Source: a virus (lineage: Duplodnaviria; Heunggongvirae; Uroviricota; Caudoviricetes). Taken from it: 34,082 nucleotides of DNA. Location of the stretch: IMG/VR virus record IMGVR_UViG_3300045988_014597, positions 1-34,082 of that record, one strand, 5' to 3'. This document shows positions 20,927 through 34,082 of the stretch, piece by piece; the first letter of the stretch is position 1, and each line of letters starts with the position of its first letter. A model generated the notes under the pieces. That model did no database searches, was not told the origin of the DNA, and was given only the letters and a program-made list of their open reading frames with translations. A program made the translations under genes and the position numbers.

Positions 20927-20955
20927 TTGACTTTTCACTGAAAATATGCTAAGCT
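20927..20955 (+). promoter_or_regulatory. Strong sigma70-like promoter with extended -10 (TTGACT-N17-TGC-TAAGCT), copy 1
   Basis: TTGACT at 20927-20932, TG at 20947-20948, TAAGCT at 20950-20955. Confidence 0.6.
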
Positions 20956-21037
20956 CCACCTGAGCTTGTGAAGTATGAACAAGCGACCGCGGTGCGGCAG
21001 GAGAACGGAGCGGTGCGTTAGCACTGAGTGTAGTGTC
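20927..21037 (+). repeat. Dispersed direct repeat R1 (promoter plus conserved leader), about 110 bp
   Basis: Aligns with 33971-34082. The first ~66 nt differ at 2 positions; the remainder has two single-base indels and more substitutions. Confidence 0.85.
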
Positions 21038-21155
21038 GCTGCCCGCATTCGGAAGGCCCATAGTCTATTGTTAATCCAGCCTAAATACCCAAGTCACTGA
21101 TAATTAAAAGTTTCTATAGTTGCCGTGAGCAATGTAGAGAGTACTTCACTCCGCT

Positions 21156-21177
21156 GGGGTGGGCTAACGCCCACCCC
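21156..21177 (+). other. GC-rich hairpin GGGGTGGGC-TAAC-GCCCACCCC
   Basis: Perfect 9 bp stem with a 4 nt loop. No immediate U-tract, so either a weak terminator or an RNA structural element downstream of R1. Confidence 0.4.
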
Positions 21178-21298: not shown

Positions 21299-21517
21299 AT
21301 GAACAAAGCGACCGCAAGCGTAGTTTCCGCAATCAAAGAAGTTTACGGCATCGATATTTCAGAGCGCGTAATCATCGGTAATAAGCGCAACTTCTTTACG
21401 TTCGACACCGACGGAATGGATGAAAATGATTTTATCAACGTACAACGTTTCGCTAATGATAGAGGGCTTCGTAACGAGCCTGCAGGTTACAAGAAATTCG
21501 CTATCTACTTTAAATAA
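21299..21517 (+). CDS. Hypothetical protein, 72 aa
   Basis: First ORF after the family B promoter; AAGGA RBS. Confidence 0.6.
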   Translation: MNKATASVVSAIKEVYGIDISERVIIGNKRNFFTFDTDGMDENDFINVQRFANDRGLRNEPAGYKKFAIYFK

Positions 21518-21535
21518 GACAGAGGAGTGATGGTT

Positions 21536-21724
21536 ATGTTTAAGAAGGGTCAGTTGGTCAAAGCTGTAAATAGCAATTATTTCATTGTTGAAAGCGAGTC
21601 TGCAGTTTTTCCGAGGGCTTATAGAGTAAGTTTTATACGGGAAAGATTAGGAGCGGTAACTTGGTTCCGTGAAGATGAGCTAACACTCATCGGCAACAAT
21701 TTTAAATTCAAAGGGGCGAAGTGA
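21536..21724 (+). CDS. Hypothetical protein, about 62 aa
   Basis: GAGGAG RBS at 21522-21527; ATG at 21536 preferred over the GTG at 21527. Confidence 0.5.
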   Translation: MFKKGQLVKAVNSNYFIVESESAVFPRAYRVSFIRERLGAVTWFREDELTLIGNNFKFKGAK

Positions 21725-21978
21725 TGGAAGAATTAATTTGTATTGAATCTGGTCCAGATGTGCGGCATTGGTTTGTAAAAGGTAACAAGTATTCGTCAGG
21801 GGTATATTACGACGGCCGTCGATACGTTTTAGATGAAGACGGTGATGAATGGGACTTAGAGCAATCACATGGTGAAGCCTTTACCGTGAATTTCCTGGGC
21901 ACACCCGCCATAACATTCACAACGGCATCGAATCATGATGCTCGTGCCGATGACTCTGAGGGAGGTTGCCGTGGATAA
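21724..21978 (+). CDS. Hypothetical protein, about 84 aa
   Basis: ATG overlaps the upstream TGA. Confidence 0.5.
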   Translation: MEELICIESGPDVRHWFVKGNKYSSGVYYDGRRYVLDEDGDEWDLEQSHGEAFTVNFLGTPAITFTTASNHDARADDSEGGCRG

Positions 21979-22000
21979 TATTTTAATGGTGGAGGTTGAT

Positions 22001-22195
22001 ATGAGCCCGTATAACAAATTTCGCTTACGCCGTCTTGTTGGTGGTCTGCGCGCCGCCGAGTTTGGTGTTGAATGTTGGGAAAAGGCGAAATATACCCCAT
22101 GGAAGTCGTGGCATTTGGTTCATGCTAAGGCGGTAGCACAGTACCGTGAGTACAAGTTAAACAGTTTCCTTAAGCACCACGGGGTTGAGTTATGA
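22001..22195 (+). CDS. Hypothetical protein, 64 aa
   Basis: GGAGG RBS five nt upstream of ATG 22001. Confidence 0.45.
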   Translation: MSPYNKFRLRRLVGGLRAAEFGVECWEKAKYTPWKSWHLVHAKAVAQYREYKLNSFLKHHGVEL

Positions 22196-22353
22196 GAGAA
22201 GCATTTGAACGGTGGGCCGTCGTAGAGGGTCTGCCGGTTAACAAGGGTTCGAAGAAAGAGTACCTGACCGTTAAGACACGTCTTGCGTGGCGGGCGTGGA
22301 AAGCTGGTGTGCAATTTCGTGCTGGTGTAACAGGTGGTGTAACAGGTCAATAG
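22192..22353 (+). CDS. Small hypothetical protein, 53 aa
   Basis: ATGA overlap with the upstream stop; too short for the ORF track. Confidence 0.35.
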   Translation: MREAFERWAVVEGLPVNKGSKKEYLTVKTRLAWRAWKAGVQFRAGVTGGVTGQ

Positions 22354-22501
22354 GTTACTATTTGTCTTTGTGTCTTACGCTGCTACACAGCAGCGTACAA
22401 CTTTAACTTAGTGTCGTCAAAAGGCGACACTTTTCACCAAACGCAACAATCGAAGCGACTATTGCAGGAGATGCAACAATACAAACACCAATAAAATTTA
22501 C

Positions 22502-22530
22502 TTGCACACTGGGATAGAATAGACTACTAT
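22502..22530 (+). promoter_or_regulatory. Family B sigma70-like promoter (TTGCAC-N17-TACTAT) with embedded palindrome GAATAG-N4-CTATTC
   Basis: Palindrome at 22517-22532 overlaps the -10. Confidence 0.6.
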
Positions 22531-22561
22531 TCATTTACACGAACGAGAGGATAGACAGAAG

Positions 22562-22711
22562 ATGGTTACTTTGATGATTATGGAATTCGAAAACAGCGCT
22601 GCAACTTACCGCGAGATGACTATGGCGCAGGCGTACCATCTGGCATCAAACGGCAGCTTCTACAAGGCTCAAATCATCAATGAGTTCGGGGTAATTGACT
22701 ATGAATTTTAG
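22562..22711 (+). CDS. Small hypothetical protein, 49 aa
   Basis: First ATG after the promoter and leader; overlaps the next gene start. Confidence 0.4.
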   Translation: MVTLMIMEFENSAATYREMTMAQAYHLASNGSFYKAQIINEFGVIDYEF

Positions 22712-22973
22712 AAGATACACCGTTACCGTTGATTTTGAGGGGCTGGATTTGCCCCTCCCCAACAACTACCGGTATATAACCCGTGACCGTTTCGGGTTTA
22801 TTCAGGGGTGGCGTAACAAGCCGACAGACACTGAGTTCGGGATGTCGGGTGGTGAAGAGTTGCCGATCACGTTCGGGCACCAAAGTAGTAACGAAGAGCT
22901 TAAAACTGTGATTCGTAAGTATCGTCGCCGGGGTAAAACTGAACTTATCGCAATAACAGGCGCTGTTGAATAA
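22701..22973 (+). CDS. Hypothetical protein, 90 aa
   Basis: ATG at 22701 preferred over the TTG at 22695. Confidence 0.5.
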   Translation: MNFRRYTVTVDFEGLDLPLPNNYRYITRDRFGFIQGWRNKPTDTEFGMSGGEELPITFGHQSSNEELKTVIRKYRRRGKTELIAITGAVE

Positions 22974-22992
22974 ACGAGAGGAGAGACGGAAG

Positions 22993-23421
22993 ATGAGTAA
23001 CAAAAACGAAGTATTCGAGTACCTGATTGACCAGCTACGGCAGCAGGTAAATAAGAAAGATGTGACATCTTTCAATGTATCTGTGCAGATATCCGACCTT
23101 GATGAGGTCAAGCAGGTAGTCCACAACCTACAGCAGCATATCGCAGGTAAGGATGACGAAATACGTGCGCTGAAAGACAGTTTACGGCAGCAGGTAAATA
23201 ACAACCAGTGCGAAGACCTGGCGCATGAGGTGCAGTCACTTAAGAATCAGTTACGTGATGCGTCGGCGCTGGTGGCTGAGTTGCAGAAAGAACTTGATGT
23301 CGCGAATAGCACCGTAGCTCGTTTGAGTAAAGAGGGGGTACAGAGGTGCAACCATGTTTGGTACAGGTACAACTTAGGCGGCTACACTAAGATGTGCCTT
23401 AAATGCGGGCTAAAGAAATGA
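22993..23421 (+). CDS. Coiled-coil protein with C-terminal zinc ribbon, 142 aa
   Basis: Strong GAGAGGAGAG RBS; internal repeat LRQQVNK / LRQQVNN; C-terminal CNHVW...CLKCG. Confidence 0.55.
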   Translation: MSNKNEVFEYLIDQLRQQVNKKDVTSFNVSVQISDLDEVKQVVHNLQQHIAGKDDEIRALKDSLRQQVNNNQCEDLAHEVQSLKNQLRDASALVAELQKELDVANSTVARLSKEGVQRCNHVWYRYNLGGYTKMCLKCGLKK

Positions 23422-23621
23422 CCAGCATCTTATTTATCTGGGTACTGGCCGCGGGCCATATGCACCTAGCGGCAACAGAAACGTTTTACTCGATGGAGGC
23501 GTGCCAGTCAGCGGCACGCGCCGCGGAGAACGCGCACTTTCTGTTTCAGGGTGACAAGCCCAACGATTCAGAGGTACGCGCTATCTGCTCACCTAAGCGA
23601 CTTAGCAAACAGGAGAAGTGA
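23418..23621 (+). CDS. Small protein with hydrophobic N-terminus (possible signal peptide or membrane anchor), 67 aa
   Basis: MTSILFIWVLAAGHMHLAA; ATGA overlap with the upstream stop. An alternative ATG exists at 23403. Confidence 0.45.
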   Translation: MTSILFIWVLAAGHMHLAATETFYSMEACQSAARAAENAHFLFQGDKPNDSEVRAICSPKRLSKQEK

Positions 23622-23623
23622 TT

Positions 23624-23875
23624 ATGGTTGTACGATATGACTTAACAGAAGATTTTGCGGGTACAGTAGATATAACGCCTGTCCCGGACTCGCATGAAGG
23701 ACGTTATGTAAGCTACGAAGATTACGCGAAACTCGAAGCCGAACTTCTGGAAATAAAAGCTGCAGCCCGTTGTCTTGTGCGAGAAGCGAGTAAGGTGTAT
23801 AGCGATTATAGTGACGTTATAGCGCCTGAGTTTGTAGACCAGCAAACCATATACGAACTGGGCATTCTGCTATGA
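23624..23875 (+). CDS. Hypothetical protein, about 83 aa
   Basis: AGGAGAAG RBS upstream of ATG 23624. Confidence 0.5.
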   Translation: MVVRYDLTEDFAGTVDITPVPDSHEGRYVSYEDYAKLEAELLEIKAAARCLVREASKVYSDYSDVIAPEFVDQQTIYELGILL

Positions 23876-24165
23876 GCCTCGCAACGGACATCCTGGAACG
23901 AAGCGGCCTTGCGCCGCTGGCACCGAGAGCTAAAACACGGATACACAAGCGTCGCCGTAACGCGCTGTACCCTGAGATTCAGGCCAGACGCAAAGCGGTA
24001 CGCGCCTGTGGATTCCAGAACGGGAAGGCTGTGAACCTCGGTGAGTTTAAAACGCAGGAGCGCGCTGCAATCGCTAATCGGTTATTTAATTACTGGAAAT
24101 CGCTGGGATACGATGATATCCCGACGAAACCACAGAGGCGACAATACATCTGGCGTCATAAATAA
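23872..24165 (+). CDS. Hypothetical basic protein, 97 aa
   Basis: ATGA overlap with the upstream stop; Arg/Lys-rich. Confidence 0.5.
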   Translation: MSLATDILERSGLAPLAPRAKTRIHKRRRNALYPEIQARRKAVRACGFQNGKAVNLGEFKTQERAAIANRLFNYWKSLGYDDIPTKPQRRQYIWRHK

Positions 24166-24195
24166 ACCGTTATTAGGATAATTCCTACCCGTGGT

Positions 24196-24235
24196 ATCCT
24201 CCAGTTACTGCATACTTAATACGCACCTGGAGGAT
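24196..24235 (+). promoter_or_regulatory. Inverted repeat that could sequester the holin ribosome-binding site
   Basis: ATCCTCCAG (24196-24204) and CTGGAGGAT (24227-24235) can pair; the right arm contains the GGAGGA Shine-Dalgarno six nt before the TTG start at 24241. Confidence 0.4.
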
Positions 24236-24240
24236 TCATC

Positions 24241-24549
24241 TTGGATAAATTTACTGAAACAGTGACGGGGTGGCTTCTCGCTGCCGCACTAGCCGGAGGG
24301 GTAATCGGGCTACGACAACATAAGTCCGTTATTTCAGGCCCAATAGACGGCTTCTGCTTTATTGCAACAGGCTTCACCTGCGCCGTATTTGGTGCACCTC
24401 TTGCGGCCCAATGGTTTGGCATCACGGGCGACCGTGAAATCGCAGGCCTGGGCTTCATTATCGCTATTCTCTGGATGCCTATCTATTCCCGCCTTTCTGG
24501 CATCGTCGCCGGAGAATACATTGCACGTCGAGGAGGCCCGGATGAATGA
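24241..24549 (+). CDS. Holin-like membrane protein, 102 aa, TTG start
   Basis: Several hydrophobic segments; immediately upstream of a second membrane protein and the endolysin. Confidence 0.5.
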   Translation: MDKFTETVTGWLLAAALAGGVIGLRQHKSVISGPIDGFCFIATGFTCAVFGAPLAAQWFGITGDREIAGLGFIIAILWMPIYSRLSGIVAGEYIARRGGPDE

Positions 24550-24814
24550 GCTATTCTGGTTCGGTGGTATGCTGGCCATCGGAGGCACATCGCTGTTTAA
24601 TGTGTACCACCCCCGCGTTGACGACGGGCTATTCGGTCGGGTGCTCTATATCCTGACCGCTATTGTCTGCGCCGCCGGATGTATCCACCTGTTACAGGGC
24701 AGCATGTCACCTACGCTGCCCGAGACATTAATCACATTAGTTGCGCTGCGCCAGATTCGTCAGGCGTGGCTGTCATACGGAGGGCATAAGCGTGTCTCGA
24801 AACATTTCAGATAA
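24542..24814 (+). CDS. Second lysis-cassette membrane protein (holin or antiholin-like), 90 aa
   Basis: GGAGG RBS; two hydrophobic helices; overlaps both neighbours. Confidence 0.45.
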   Translation: MNELFWFGGMLAIGGTSLFNVYHPRVDDGLFGRVLYILTAIVCAAGCIHLLQGSMSPTLPETLITLVALRQIRQAWLSYGGHKRVSKHFR

Positions 24815-25298
24815 TGGATTGCAGTTCAAAAAAGCGTGGGAGAAGTTCCGCGGAACCGCTTACAAAGCCACAAAGAACGAAAAATACTGGACTATAGGCT
24901 GGGGCCATACCGGGCCGGATGTGTATGAAGGTCAGAAGATTACCGAAGGCCAGGGGCTTCTGCTACTGAACCGTGATATGCGGTGGGCTGTGAAAGCAGT
25001 CGACGAGGTAGCACACCCCTCACTGACCCAGGCCCAGTTTGATGCTGTTGTTGACCTGGTGTTTAACGCAGGAACCGGCGTTATCGCGGCTACTACCGGA
25101 ACCGGTAAGGCGCTACGGCAGGGTGACATCCCTACCTTACGGCATAAGTTGGGTCAGTTCATCAACCAACGCAACCCGAAAACAGGTAAACTCGAGCCTG
25201 TTCTCGGCTTGCGCCGCCGTACTGCGGGACGACTGGCCCTGTTCGACGGTAAGCCGTGGCAGGAGGCTGAGGCTATCGGACGCGCGGTGAAAGGTTGA
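24792..25298 (+). CDS. Endolysin, GH24 lysozyme (T4 / P22 gp19-like), about 168 aa
   Basis: WEKFRGTAYKATKNEKYWTIGWGH matches the lysozyme catalytic region (Glu, then about 8 residues, then TIGxGH). GTG start at 24792 with a GGAGGG RBS preferred. Confidence 0.8.
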   Translation: MSRNISDNGLQFKKAWEKFRGTAYKATKNEKYWTIGWGHTGPDVYEGQKITEGQGLLLLNRDMRWAVKAVDEVAHPSLTQAQFDAVVDLVFNAGTGVIAATTGTGKALRQGDIPTLRHKLGQFINQRNPKTGKLEPVLGLRRRTAGRLALFDGKPWQEAEAIGRAVKG

Positions 25299-25364
25299 CA
25301 CCTGAGACTAATCCGACGATACTTAAATCACCTCCTGTTCCACACCTCTACTCTCCAGTTTTAT

Positions 25365-25394
25365 CCCGGCCCTGACCCAGCCGGGATTTTTTTA
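25365..25394 (+). terminator. Intrinsic terminator after the lysis cassette
   Basis: CCCGG...CCGGG hairpin followed by ATTTTTTTA. Confidence 0.6.
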
Positions 25395-25415
25395 TCTATT
25401 TTCTGCAATGACTAG

Positions 25416-25444
25416 TTGACTATTACCATCGACCCTATTATATT
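25416..25444 (+). promoter_or_regulatory. Sigma70-like promoter (TTGACT-N17-TATATT)
   Basis: Leader ATCGACAACGAGAAC resembles the family B leaders; a degenerate palindrome ACTAG-N4-CTATT overlaps the -35. Confidence 0.5.
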
Positions 25445-33970: not shown

Positions 33971-33999
33971 TTGACTTTTCACTAAAAATGTGCTAAGCT
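33971..33999 (+). promoter_or_regulatory. Strong sigma70-like promoter with extended -10 (TTGACT-N17-TGC-TAAGCT), copy 2
   Basis: Same architecture as 20927-20955; preceded by the perfect palindrome CTATTCGAATAG at 33959-33970. Confidence 0.6.
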
Positions 34000-34082
34000 C
34001 CACCTGAGCTTGTGAAGTATGAACAAGCGACCGCGGCGCGGGCAGGTAACGGAGCGGGACGTAAGTCCTGAGTGTAGTTACG
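33971..34082 (+). repeat. Dispersed direct repeat R2 (promoter plus conserved leader), truncated by the window end
   Basis: Aligns with 20927-21037. Confidence 0.85.

Follow-up and report, generated by a model that had tools for sequence, protein, structure and literature searches.

A conserved hairpin predicted to bury the ribosome-binding site of a TTG-initiated holin gene in Kagunavirus and related phages

The lysis cassette and the holin leader

The window analyzed in this study is the whole 34,082 nt record IMGVR_UViG_3300045988_014597 (positions 1 to 34,082), which belongs to a tailed phage (Caudoviricetes). In a megablast search with positions 23600-25400, about 200 phage records were matched, and the closest were Escherichia phages of the genus Kagunavirus (Guernseyvirinae) with 85-93% identity. 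This region contains a lysis cassette in the order holin-holin-lysozyme, with the following features.

24241..24549 (+): holin 1, 102 aa, TTG start, three hydrophobic segments (ORF list; PHROGs)
24542..24814 (+): holin 2 (or antiholin), 90 aa, ATG start, phrog_2508 holin (E 1e-33)
24792..25298 (+): endolysin (phage lysozyme), 168 aa, GTG start, PF00959 (E 3e-24)
25363..25393 (+): intrinsic terminator closing the lysis cassette, ATCCCGGC, 9 nt loop, GCCGGGAT, T7 run (sequence read)

The first gene matched phrog_2359 (holin) with an E value of 3.8e-29 in a PHROGs profile search, and this match, together with its place at the head of the cassette, bears out the initial annotation of the first lysis gene as a holin. 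On the same grounds holin 1 is assigned to the class I holins, and hole formation is predicted. The record of phage Shashou notes three transmembrane segments, and in relatives the gene is annotated as a class I holin/antiholin that starts at TTG behind a ribosome-binding site. No Pfam model matched either holin, and PHROGs alone names them. A 119 aa protein (P0001) considered as a longer form of the holin was discarded as a contig-end artefact. The ATG of holin 2 overlaps the stop codon of holin 1 (ATGAATGA) and has its own GGAGG upstream, and the endolysin gene, whose GTG has GGAGGG 7 nt upstream, overlaps holin 2 by 23 nt; only one of the three lysis genes starts with ATG. With overlaps at 24542-24549 and 24792-24814, the cassette looks translationally coupled. 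A terminator is annotated in phage Shashou at the place matching 25363..25393. In phage 26, an annotated relative, a terminator also follows the lysis cassette, the spanins are encoded elsewhere, and the cassette ends a rightward block of small genes whose beginning, at a divergent intergenic region, lies about 3.2 kb upstream. In a 41 kb ENA metagenome contig (L062, positions 1501-2313), a 67%-identical holin 1 is followed directly by the endolysin, which suggests that holin 1 suffices by itself and that the second holin, missing from L062, acts as an accessory protein or antiholin.

The gene upstream of the cassette ends 76 nt before the holin start and 30 nt before the base of a hairpin. 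The features of this leader are listed below, with nucleotide diversities calculated from 40 unique Kagunavirus sequences.

24165..24240 (+): conserved block of the holin leader, with Kagunavirus loci homologous from about 24165 onward
24192..24200 (+): extended -10-like element TGgTATCCT (TG 24192-24193, hexamer TATCCT 24195-24200), a putative promoter that overlaps the 5' arm
24196..24204 (+): 5' arm of the hairpin, AUCCUCCAG, a mimic in cis of the 16S anti-Shine-Dalgarno; diversity 0.006
24205..24226 (+): loop, 22 nt, with an inner 3 bp helix and the in-frame stop TAA (24217-24219); diversity 0.023
24227..24235 (+): 3' arm, CUGGAGGAU, which holds GGAGGA (24229-24234); invariant, diversity 0.000

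The arms ATCCTCCAG (24196-24204) and CTGGAGGAT (24227-24235) form a perfect 9 bp inverted repeat, 100% complementary and 22 nt apart, as found both by reading the sequence and with a repeat finder. The GGAGGA Shine-Dalgarno sequence lies within the right arm, just as the initial annotation had described, and 6 nt before TTG 24241-24243. It had also taken this TTG as the start in the absence of a nearby in-frame ATG, and this assignment held. The in-frame TAA makes a start upstream of TTG 24241 impossible, and the open reading frame 24241-24549 offers as its next in-frame candidates a codon 8 GTG that lacks a Shine-Dalgarno sequence and an ATG at codon 79. Residue 1 is also where homologues with an ATG start (Dhillonvirus, Cornellvirus, and a Serratia phage) or a GTG start (Jerseyvirus) begin to align (M-D-K / M-D-D-K), indicating that TTG 24241 is the true start. 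The same TTG and its ribosome-binding site are already annotated in the GenBank record of phage Shashou. TTG accounts for three of the 41 mapped starts in the window and for three of 71 in phage 26.

When the hairpin was folded alone, a dG of -14.2 kcal/mol was obtained. In transcripts starting anywhere upstream of 24196, the Shine-Dalgarno sequence was unpaired with a predicted probability of 0.002-0.01, and the computed cost of opening was 11-13 kcal/mol from the Shine-Dalgarno sequence through the start codon and 9-11 kcal/mol for the Shine-Dalgarno sequence alone. The holin start was the costliest to open of the 41 mapped starts in the window (13.1 kcal/mol versus a mean of 5.6, sd 2.5), and the holin start of phage 26 likewise ranked first of 71 (15.8 versus 6.3 +/- 2.7 kcal/mol). 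A transcript starting at 24205-24209, which has no 5' arm, resembled an average gene, as it could be opened for 4.6 kcal/mol and was about 50% unpaired between the Shine-Dalgarno sequence and the start. The duplex of the Shine-Dalgarno sequence with the 16S 3' end was computed at -9.3 kcal/mol, and local folding z-scores for 57-115 nt around the hairpin were -2.0 to -2.4. According to these models, the ribosome-binding site is sequestered by a cis-acting mRNA hairpin, with a perfect 9 bp stem over GGAGGA. Long folds also extended the helix (GGU 24193-24195 with AUC 24238-24240, and CCC with UGG of the start); this extension was rejected because position 24194 is polymorphic (G/C) and the pairing is not conserved.

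A 9 bp inverted repeat is not improbable by itself in 34 kb. Perfect inverted repeats of at least 9 bp with a loop of 3-30 nt were found at eight loci in the window, versus 3.6 +/- 2.5 in Markov shuffles. What places the repeat described here above chance is its exact position on the Shine-Dalgarno sequence, its invariance in relatives, and the compensated arms in other genera.

Conservation of the hairpin and start across lineages

The hairpin and the TTG were kept in all 45 Kagunavirus loci that were read (40 first retrieved and five from metagenomes), indicating that selection acts on both. The leader from -66 to -1 had a diversity of 0.036 versus 0.35 at third codon positions of the holin gene, i.e. 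it was about 10 times less variable, and second codon positions had a diversity of 0.034 (40 unique Kagunavirus sequences). All changes in the 5' arm keep G.U pairing (A24203G in L039; C>U and A>G in L062), and such one-sided changes point to the + strand RNA rather than to a DNA site. The leader of about 76 nt stays with the holin gene whether a 97 aa gene or an HslV-like gene precedes it. The HslV-like protease gene lies between the 97 aa gene and the holin leader in phage Shashou (L001, 2032-2469) and in several IMG/VR loci, and there is none in the window; the leader sequence is identical on either background.

Two neighboring segments were also inspected. A small stem, TAGGA-TAAT-TCCTA (24174-24187), was considered as a structure or operator and rejected, since a TAAGA variant breaks it in 16 of the 40 unique Kagunavirus sequences. 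The first ~35 nt of the holin coding sequence (24241-24275) had a diversity of 0.005-0.05 versus 0.15-0.25 in the remainder, third positions included, which suggests that the early coding region is under nucleotide-level constraint. A local hairpin predicted in this segment is not conserved, the pairing at codons 4-9 (UUACUG/CAGUGA) being broken in L021 and L062.

The holin family reaches other phage groups at 22-67% identity, and in these groups a Shine-Dalgarno-like purine run was again found in the 3' arm of a hairpin, with differing arms and loops. Stem, tail, and start codon of each lineage are listed below.

L062 (uncultured, no second holin): arms AUCCUCUGG / CUGGAGGAU, two G.U pairs, unrelated 15 nt loop; tail UUUAUUUUG; TTG
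Dhillonvirus: arms AGUCCCAGUGAG / CUUACUGGGACU; U6; ATG
Dhillonvirus, Ioannina subgroup: arms as in Dhillonvirus plus a compensated C/G insertion; U6; ATG
Jerseyvirus: 13 bp stem; tail UUUUUAUU; GTG
Cornellvirus: 10 bp stem with compensated upper pairs; no U tract; ATG
Serratia, Klebsiella, and Enterobacter phages: G+C stems of 6-8 bp; U-rich tail in Klebsiella only; ATG

The loops of L062, Dhillonvirus, and Jerseyvirus are entirely different from that of Kagunavirus, and fold z-scores across the lineages ranged from -2.0 to -5.5. MAFFT put the arms out of register across genera; its pair counts were excluded and an arm-anchored alignment was substituted. In this alignment, which is built from the arms and therefore leans toward structure, 96.7% of the cells pair, eight of the nine pairs change on both sides, and the covariation was 0.91, versus 0.28 when shuffled and at most 0.11 when the partners were slid. 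No hairpin was found at the ribosome-binding site in Erwinia phage RF1 (L071) or in a betaproteobacterial contig (L059), implying that the element is confined to the group of Guernseyvirinae and Dhillonvirus.

A second weak element stands beside the hairpin in these phages. It is the TTG in Kagunavirus and L062, the GTG in Jerseyvirus, a GGGA Shine-Dalgarno sequence in Dhillonvirus (-3.9 kcal/mol versus -9.3 in the window), and an over-long spacing of 12-13 nt between Shine-Dalgarno sequence and start in Cornellvirus. This pairing of the hairpin with another weak element in each lineage fits selection for low holin output.

Promoter-like elements at the 5' arm and upstream

In at least eight lineages, a -10-like element either overlaps the 5' arm or borders on it. 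Its forms are as follows.

Kagunavirus: TG(G/C)TATCCT
L062: TGGTATCCT
Dhillonvirus: TGATATAGT, n = A
Two Dhillonvirus contigs: TGATATAAT (TATAGT -> TATAAT), which costs a stem pair
Jerseyvirus: TG(T/C)TAATCT
Cornellvirus: TGCTAACCT and TGATAATCT, n = C/A
Serratia, Klebsiella, and Enterobacter phages: TTGCAG-18 nt-TATACT (spacer sequence variable), its end lying at the base of the hairpin

Within TGn, only n varies in Kagunavirus, L062, Dhillonvirus, Jerseyvirus, and Cornellvirus, as expected of an extended -10 element. The hexamer overlaps the stem by 0 to 5 nt depending on the lineage, which argues that it is not a mere by-product of the stem, although it is partly constrained anyway by its pairing with the Shine-Dalgarno region. 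The hexamer of the window, TATCCT, matches the consensus at four of six positions, no usable -35 accompanies it, the promoter scan made no call on it, and TGNTANNNT alone occurs 44 times in the window. From the conserved motif we infer a sigma-70 promoter at 24192-24200. The predicted start lies about 24207, 3 nt into the loop; a start 7 nt past the hexamer would fall within the last 3 nt of the 5' arm in the other lineages, with at most 3 nt of the arm transcribed. Since transcripts from this conserved element would not contain the 5' arm, the hairpin may act mainly on read-through mRNA. The expectation of the initial annotation that hairpin and TTG both lower holin translation stands in so far as the Shine-Dalgarno sequence is predicted to be sequestered and both features are invariant in Kagunavirus; for the hairpin, it may apply mainly to read-through transcripts.

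Transcripts could enter the leader from the genes on its left. The genes from 21299 to 24165 are all co-oriented, a promoter-like site lies upstream of them, and the terminator scan of the window called no strong + strand terminator between this site and 24196.

20927..20955 (+): likely rightward promoter of the block entering the lysis cassette, TTGACT, 17 nt, TGcTAAGCT

The motif TTGACT-17-TGcTAAGCT occurs twice in the window versus 0.18 expected. The clear promoters of the phage itself are of this form, indicating that TG-extended -10 elements are in use. As a separate observation, the promoter-like unit is repeated at 20927-21066 and 33971-34082 (+), and downstream of each copy lie about 100 nt of sequence that is conserved and transcribed, with a hairpin that differs by two compensatory pair changes between the copies (CGGUGCG...CGCACUG versus CGGGACG...CGUCCUG type). 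These units may represent two small structured RNAs or leaders, and they had no Rfam or tRNA match; in the window as a whole, the Rfam scan at gathering thresholds returned no known RNA family and the tRNA scan zero tRNAs. A strong G+C hairpin without a U tract (GGGGTGGGC, taac, GCCCACCCC) was also noted at 21156-21177 (+), some 230 nt past the promoter-like site at 20927 and ahead of the first rightward ORF (21299).

Possible regulation of the holin gene and comparison with known systems

On balance, we lean toward a design like that of T4 gene e, in which the holin gene is silenced by the hairpin on mRNA read through from upstream, mRNA that can be translated comes from a weak dedicated promoter, and the TTG limits output. 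The lysis cassette ends a 3.3 kb rightward block of small genes, and transcripts would enter from this block. On entering transcripts, the hairpin (dG about -14 kcal/mol) would close the ribosome-binding site and no holin would be made; in the sister genera, the stem-loop followed by a U tract should also terminate them. A weak sigma-70 extended -10 promoter (TGgTATCCT, 24192-24200) overlapping the 5' arm would start transcripts about 24207 with an open ribosome-binding site, and on these the TTG would hold holin output low. The net effect would be a lethal timer protein insulated from upstream transcription, with a low production rate set.

T4 genes e, soc, 49, and I-TevI share this design: on long early transcripts an inhibitory helix forms over the ribosome-binding site, and translatable RNA is made from a late promoter within the DNA of the 5' strand of the hairpin (McPheeters et al. 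1986, reviewed in PMC3014915). The window resembles gene e in that a lysis gene lies behind earlier genes, its Shine-Dalgarno sequence or start is buried in a helix, a promoter-like element in the 5'-strand DNA would give proximal transcripts without the 5' strand, and related phages keep the leader design. It differs in that the gene encodes a holin and not an endolysin and that the hairpin appears to double as a terminator in sister genera. Two further points count against the T4-like design. The putative host-type sigma-70 extended -10 element provides no obvious early/late switch, unlike the T4 late promoter (TATAAATA with gp55/gp33), and the lineages are related, so the repeated geometry does not represent independent events.

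A broader proposal for Guernseyvirinae and Dhillonvirus, which we put forward more tentatively, is that one composite element of ~50 nt merges a host-type promoter, an intrinsic terminator, and a ribosome-binding site, such that only transcripts born in the hairpin make holin and those from upstream are terminated and/or silenced. If true, the lysis clock would be under a T4 gene e-type switch in a sigma-70 version, and TTG, GTG, or a weak Shine-Dalgarno sequence would be interchangeable trims of output. The element would also explain how a strictly lytic phage dependent on host RNA polymerase can park its lysis cassette after an early-looking operon without premature killing, and it would supply a small, transferable module of about 50 nt with which a toxic gene could be uncoupled from transcription arriving from upstream. 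The rate of holin production sets the moment of lysis, and with it burst size and fitness; TTG to ATG changes and mutations of the 5' arm or of the -10 element would be handles for lysis-time engineering. Guernseyvirinae and Dhillonvirus comprise hundreds of coliphages and Salmonella phages, many of them in therapy work, and Kagunavirus, Jerseyvirus, and Dhillonvirus are common candidates for phage therapy and biocontrol whose gene regulation is essentially unstudied. The literature found on these phages consists of generic genome descriptions, with no transcript mapping and no discussion of a leader hairpin, terminator, or promoter, and the leader of Shashou, the one relative annotated with regulatory features, carries no hairpin, terminator, or promoter annotation. 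The class of mechanism is classical and the TTG start is already in public records; the main value of the present analysis is the breadth of conservation and a testable design.

Rather doubtful, in our judgment, is a constitutive brake, in which all holin mRNA carries the hairpin and the hairpin and TTG lower initiation everywhere, delaying the point at which holin reaches its trigger level. The thermodynamics and the first-ranked opening cost fit such a brake, the hairpin is joined to one more weak element in every lineage, and the rate of holin translation shifts and sets lysis time in lambda (bioRxiv 10.1101/2025.05.14.654169). A second -10-like hexamer, GATAAT, lies upstream at 24177-24182, and if it is the real promoter, all transcripts would include the whole hairpin. 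However, the Shine-Dalgarno duplex (-9.3 kcal/mol) falls short of the roughly 13 kcal/mol needed for opening, and very little translation would be expected. A brake of this kind also leaves unexplained the retention of TG-n-TAnnnT or TTGCAG-18-TATACT at the 5' arm in all lineages amid diverging flanks, and the terminator-like U tract that stands right before the start codon in three of them.

These U tracts bear on another explanation, which we regard as unlikely: the hairpin would primarily be an intrinsic terminator or attenuator ending the upstream early operon, its overlap with the Shine-Dalgarno sequence a side effect of packing, and the lysis genes expressed by partial read-through or antitermination. 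Terminator-like calls were made on the homologous hairpins of Jerseyvirus (13 bp stem, 6 nt loop, tail TTTTATT), Dhillonvirus (12 bp stem, 6 nt loop, T6), and L062 (13 bp stem, 7 nt loop, tail TTATTTT), which had the most stem pairs among the sites called in each scanned region, and an antiterminator is annotated downstream of the lysis cassette in one relative's record. The hairpin of the window, in contrast, was not called, its loop being 22 nt and its tail UUCAUCUUG (5 U of 9); a Rho-independent terminator needs a G+C-rich stem, a loop of 3-8 nt, and a U tract directly behind it, and with a 22 nt loop and the tail TCATCTTG this identity was rejected for the window copy. Moreover, the Cornellvirus, Serratia, and Enterobacter copies keep the stem and the Shine-Dalgarno burial without a U tract, so that termination cannot be the conserved function and burial of the ribosome-binding site is the common feature. 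A DNA palindrome serving as operator for a dimeric phage or host regulator, or a chance repeat, is highly improbable: the arms are a perfect palindromic pair in an intergenic position and 9 bp repeats arise by chance 3-4 times in 34 kb, but the arms are anywhere from 6 to 22 nt apart and differ in sequence from genus to genus without losing complementarity, the G.U-compatible changes of L039 and L062 are A-C mismatches on the other strand and meaningless for a DNA site, and invariance in all Kagunavirus loci read excludes chance.

Apart from the T4-like design that we favor, the leader can be set beside three other systems. In MS2, the start of the lysis gene L is closed by a hairpin and opened by ribosome termination and reinitiation in the overlapping gene (van Duin and co-workers). 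The likeness is a lysis gene start closed by RNA structure, with the lethal product kept low; the difference is that the upstream gene in the window does not overlap, as its distances to the holin start and the hairpin base show. In the lambda S gene, an upstream sdi stem-loop and a dual-start motif yield the S107 antiholin and the S105 holin (Blasi, Young and co-workers). Both have an RNA stem-loop at the translation start of a holin setting, or in the window possibly setting, output and lysis timing, but the window hairpin buries the Shine-Dalgarno sequence itself, whereas lambda partitions ribosomes between two AUGs. A dual-start holin of the lambda type was rejected for the window because of the in-frame stop at 24217-24219 and because the next start is the codon 8 GTG without a Shine-Dalgarno sequence; the segment with this GTG is absent from Dhillonvirus homologues.

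In the lambda late operon, the terminator of pR'-tR' lies before the holin gene S and is read through by Q. A terminator-like hairpin likewise stands ahead of the holin gene in Jerseyvirus, Dhillonvirus, and L062; there, unlike in lambda, it extends over the ribosome-binding site up to the start codon. The window copy has no proper U tract, and no Q-type loading site was identified. A separate arrangement was observed after the endolysin stop codon, where a consensus-like promoter, TTGACA-17-GATACT, lies at 25295-25323 (+), with the strong terminator about 40 nt beyond it and a second promoter, TTGACT-17-TATATT, at 25416-25444 (+) after the terminator 25363-25393. Both promoters recur with equal spacing in Jerseyvirus CTH7, the terminator between them having been checked in the window only. 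The promoter-terminator pair at 25295-25393 resembles lambda pR'-tR' and might, by this analogy, mark an antitermination site or a short RNA.
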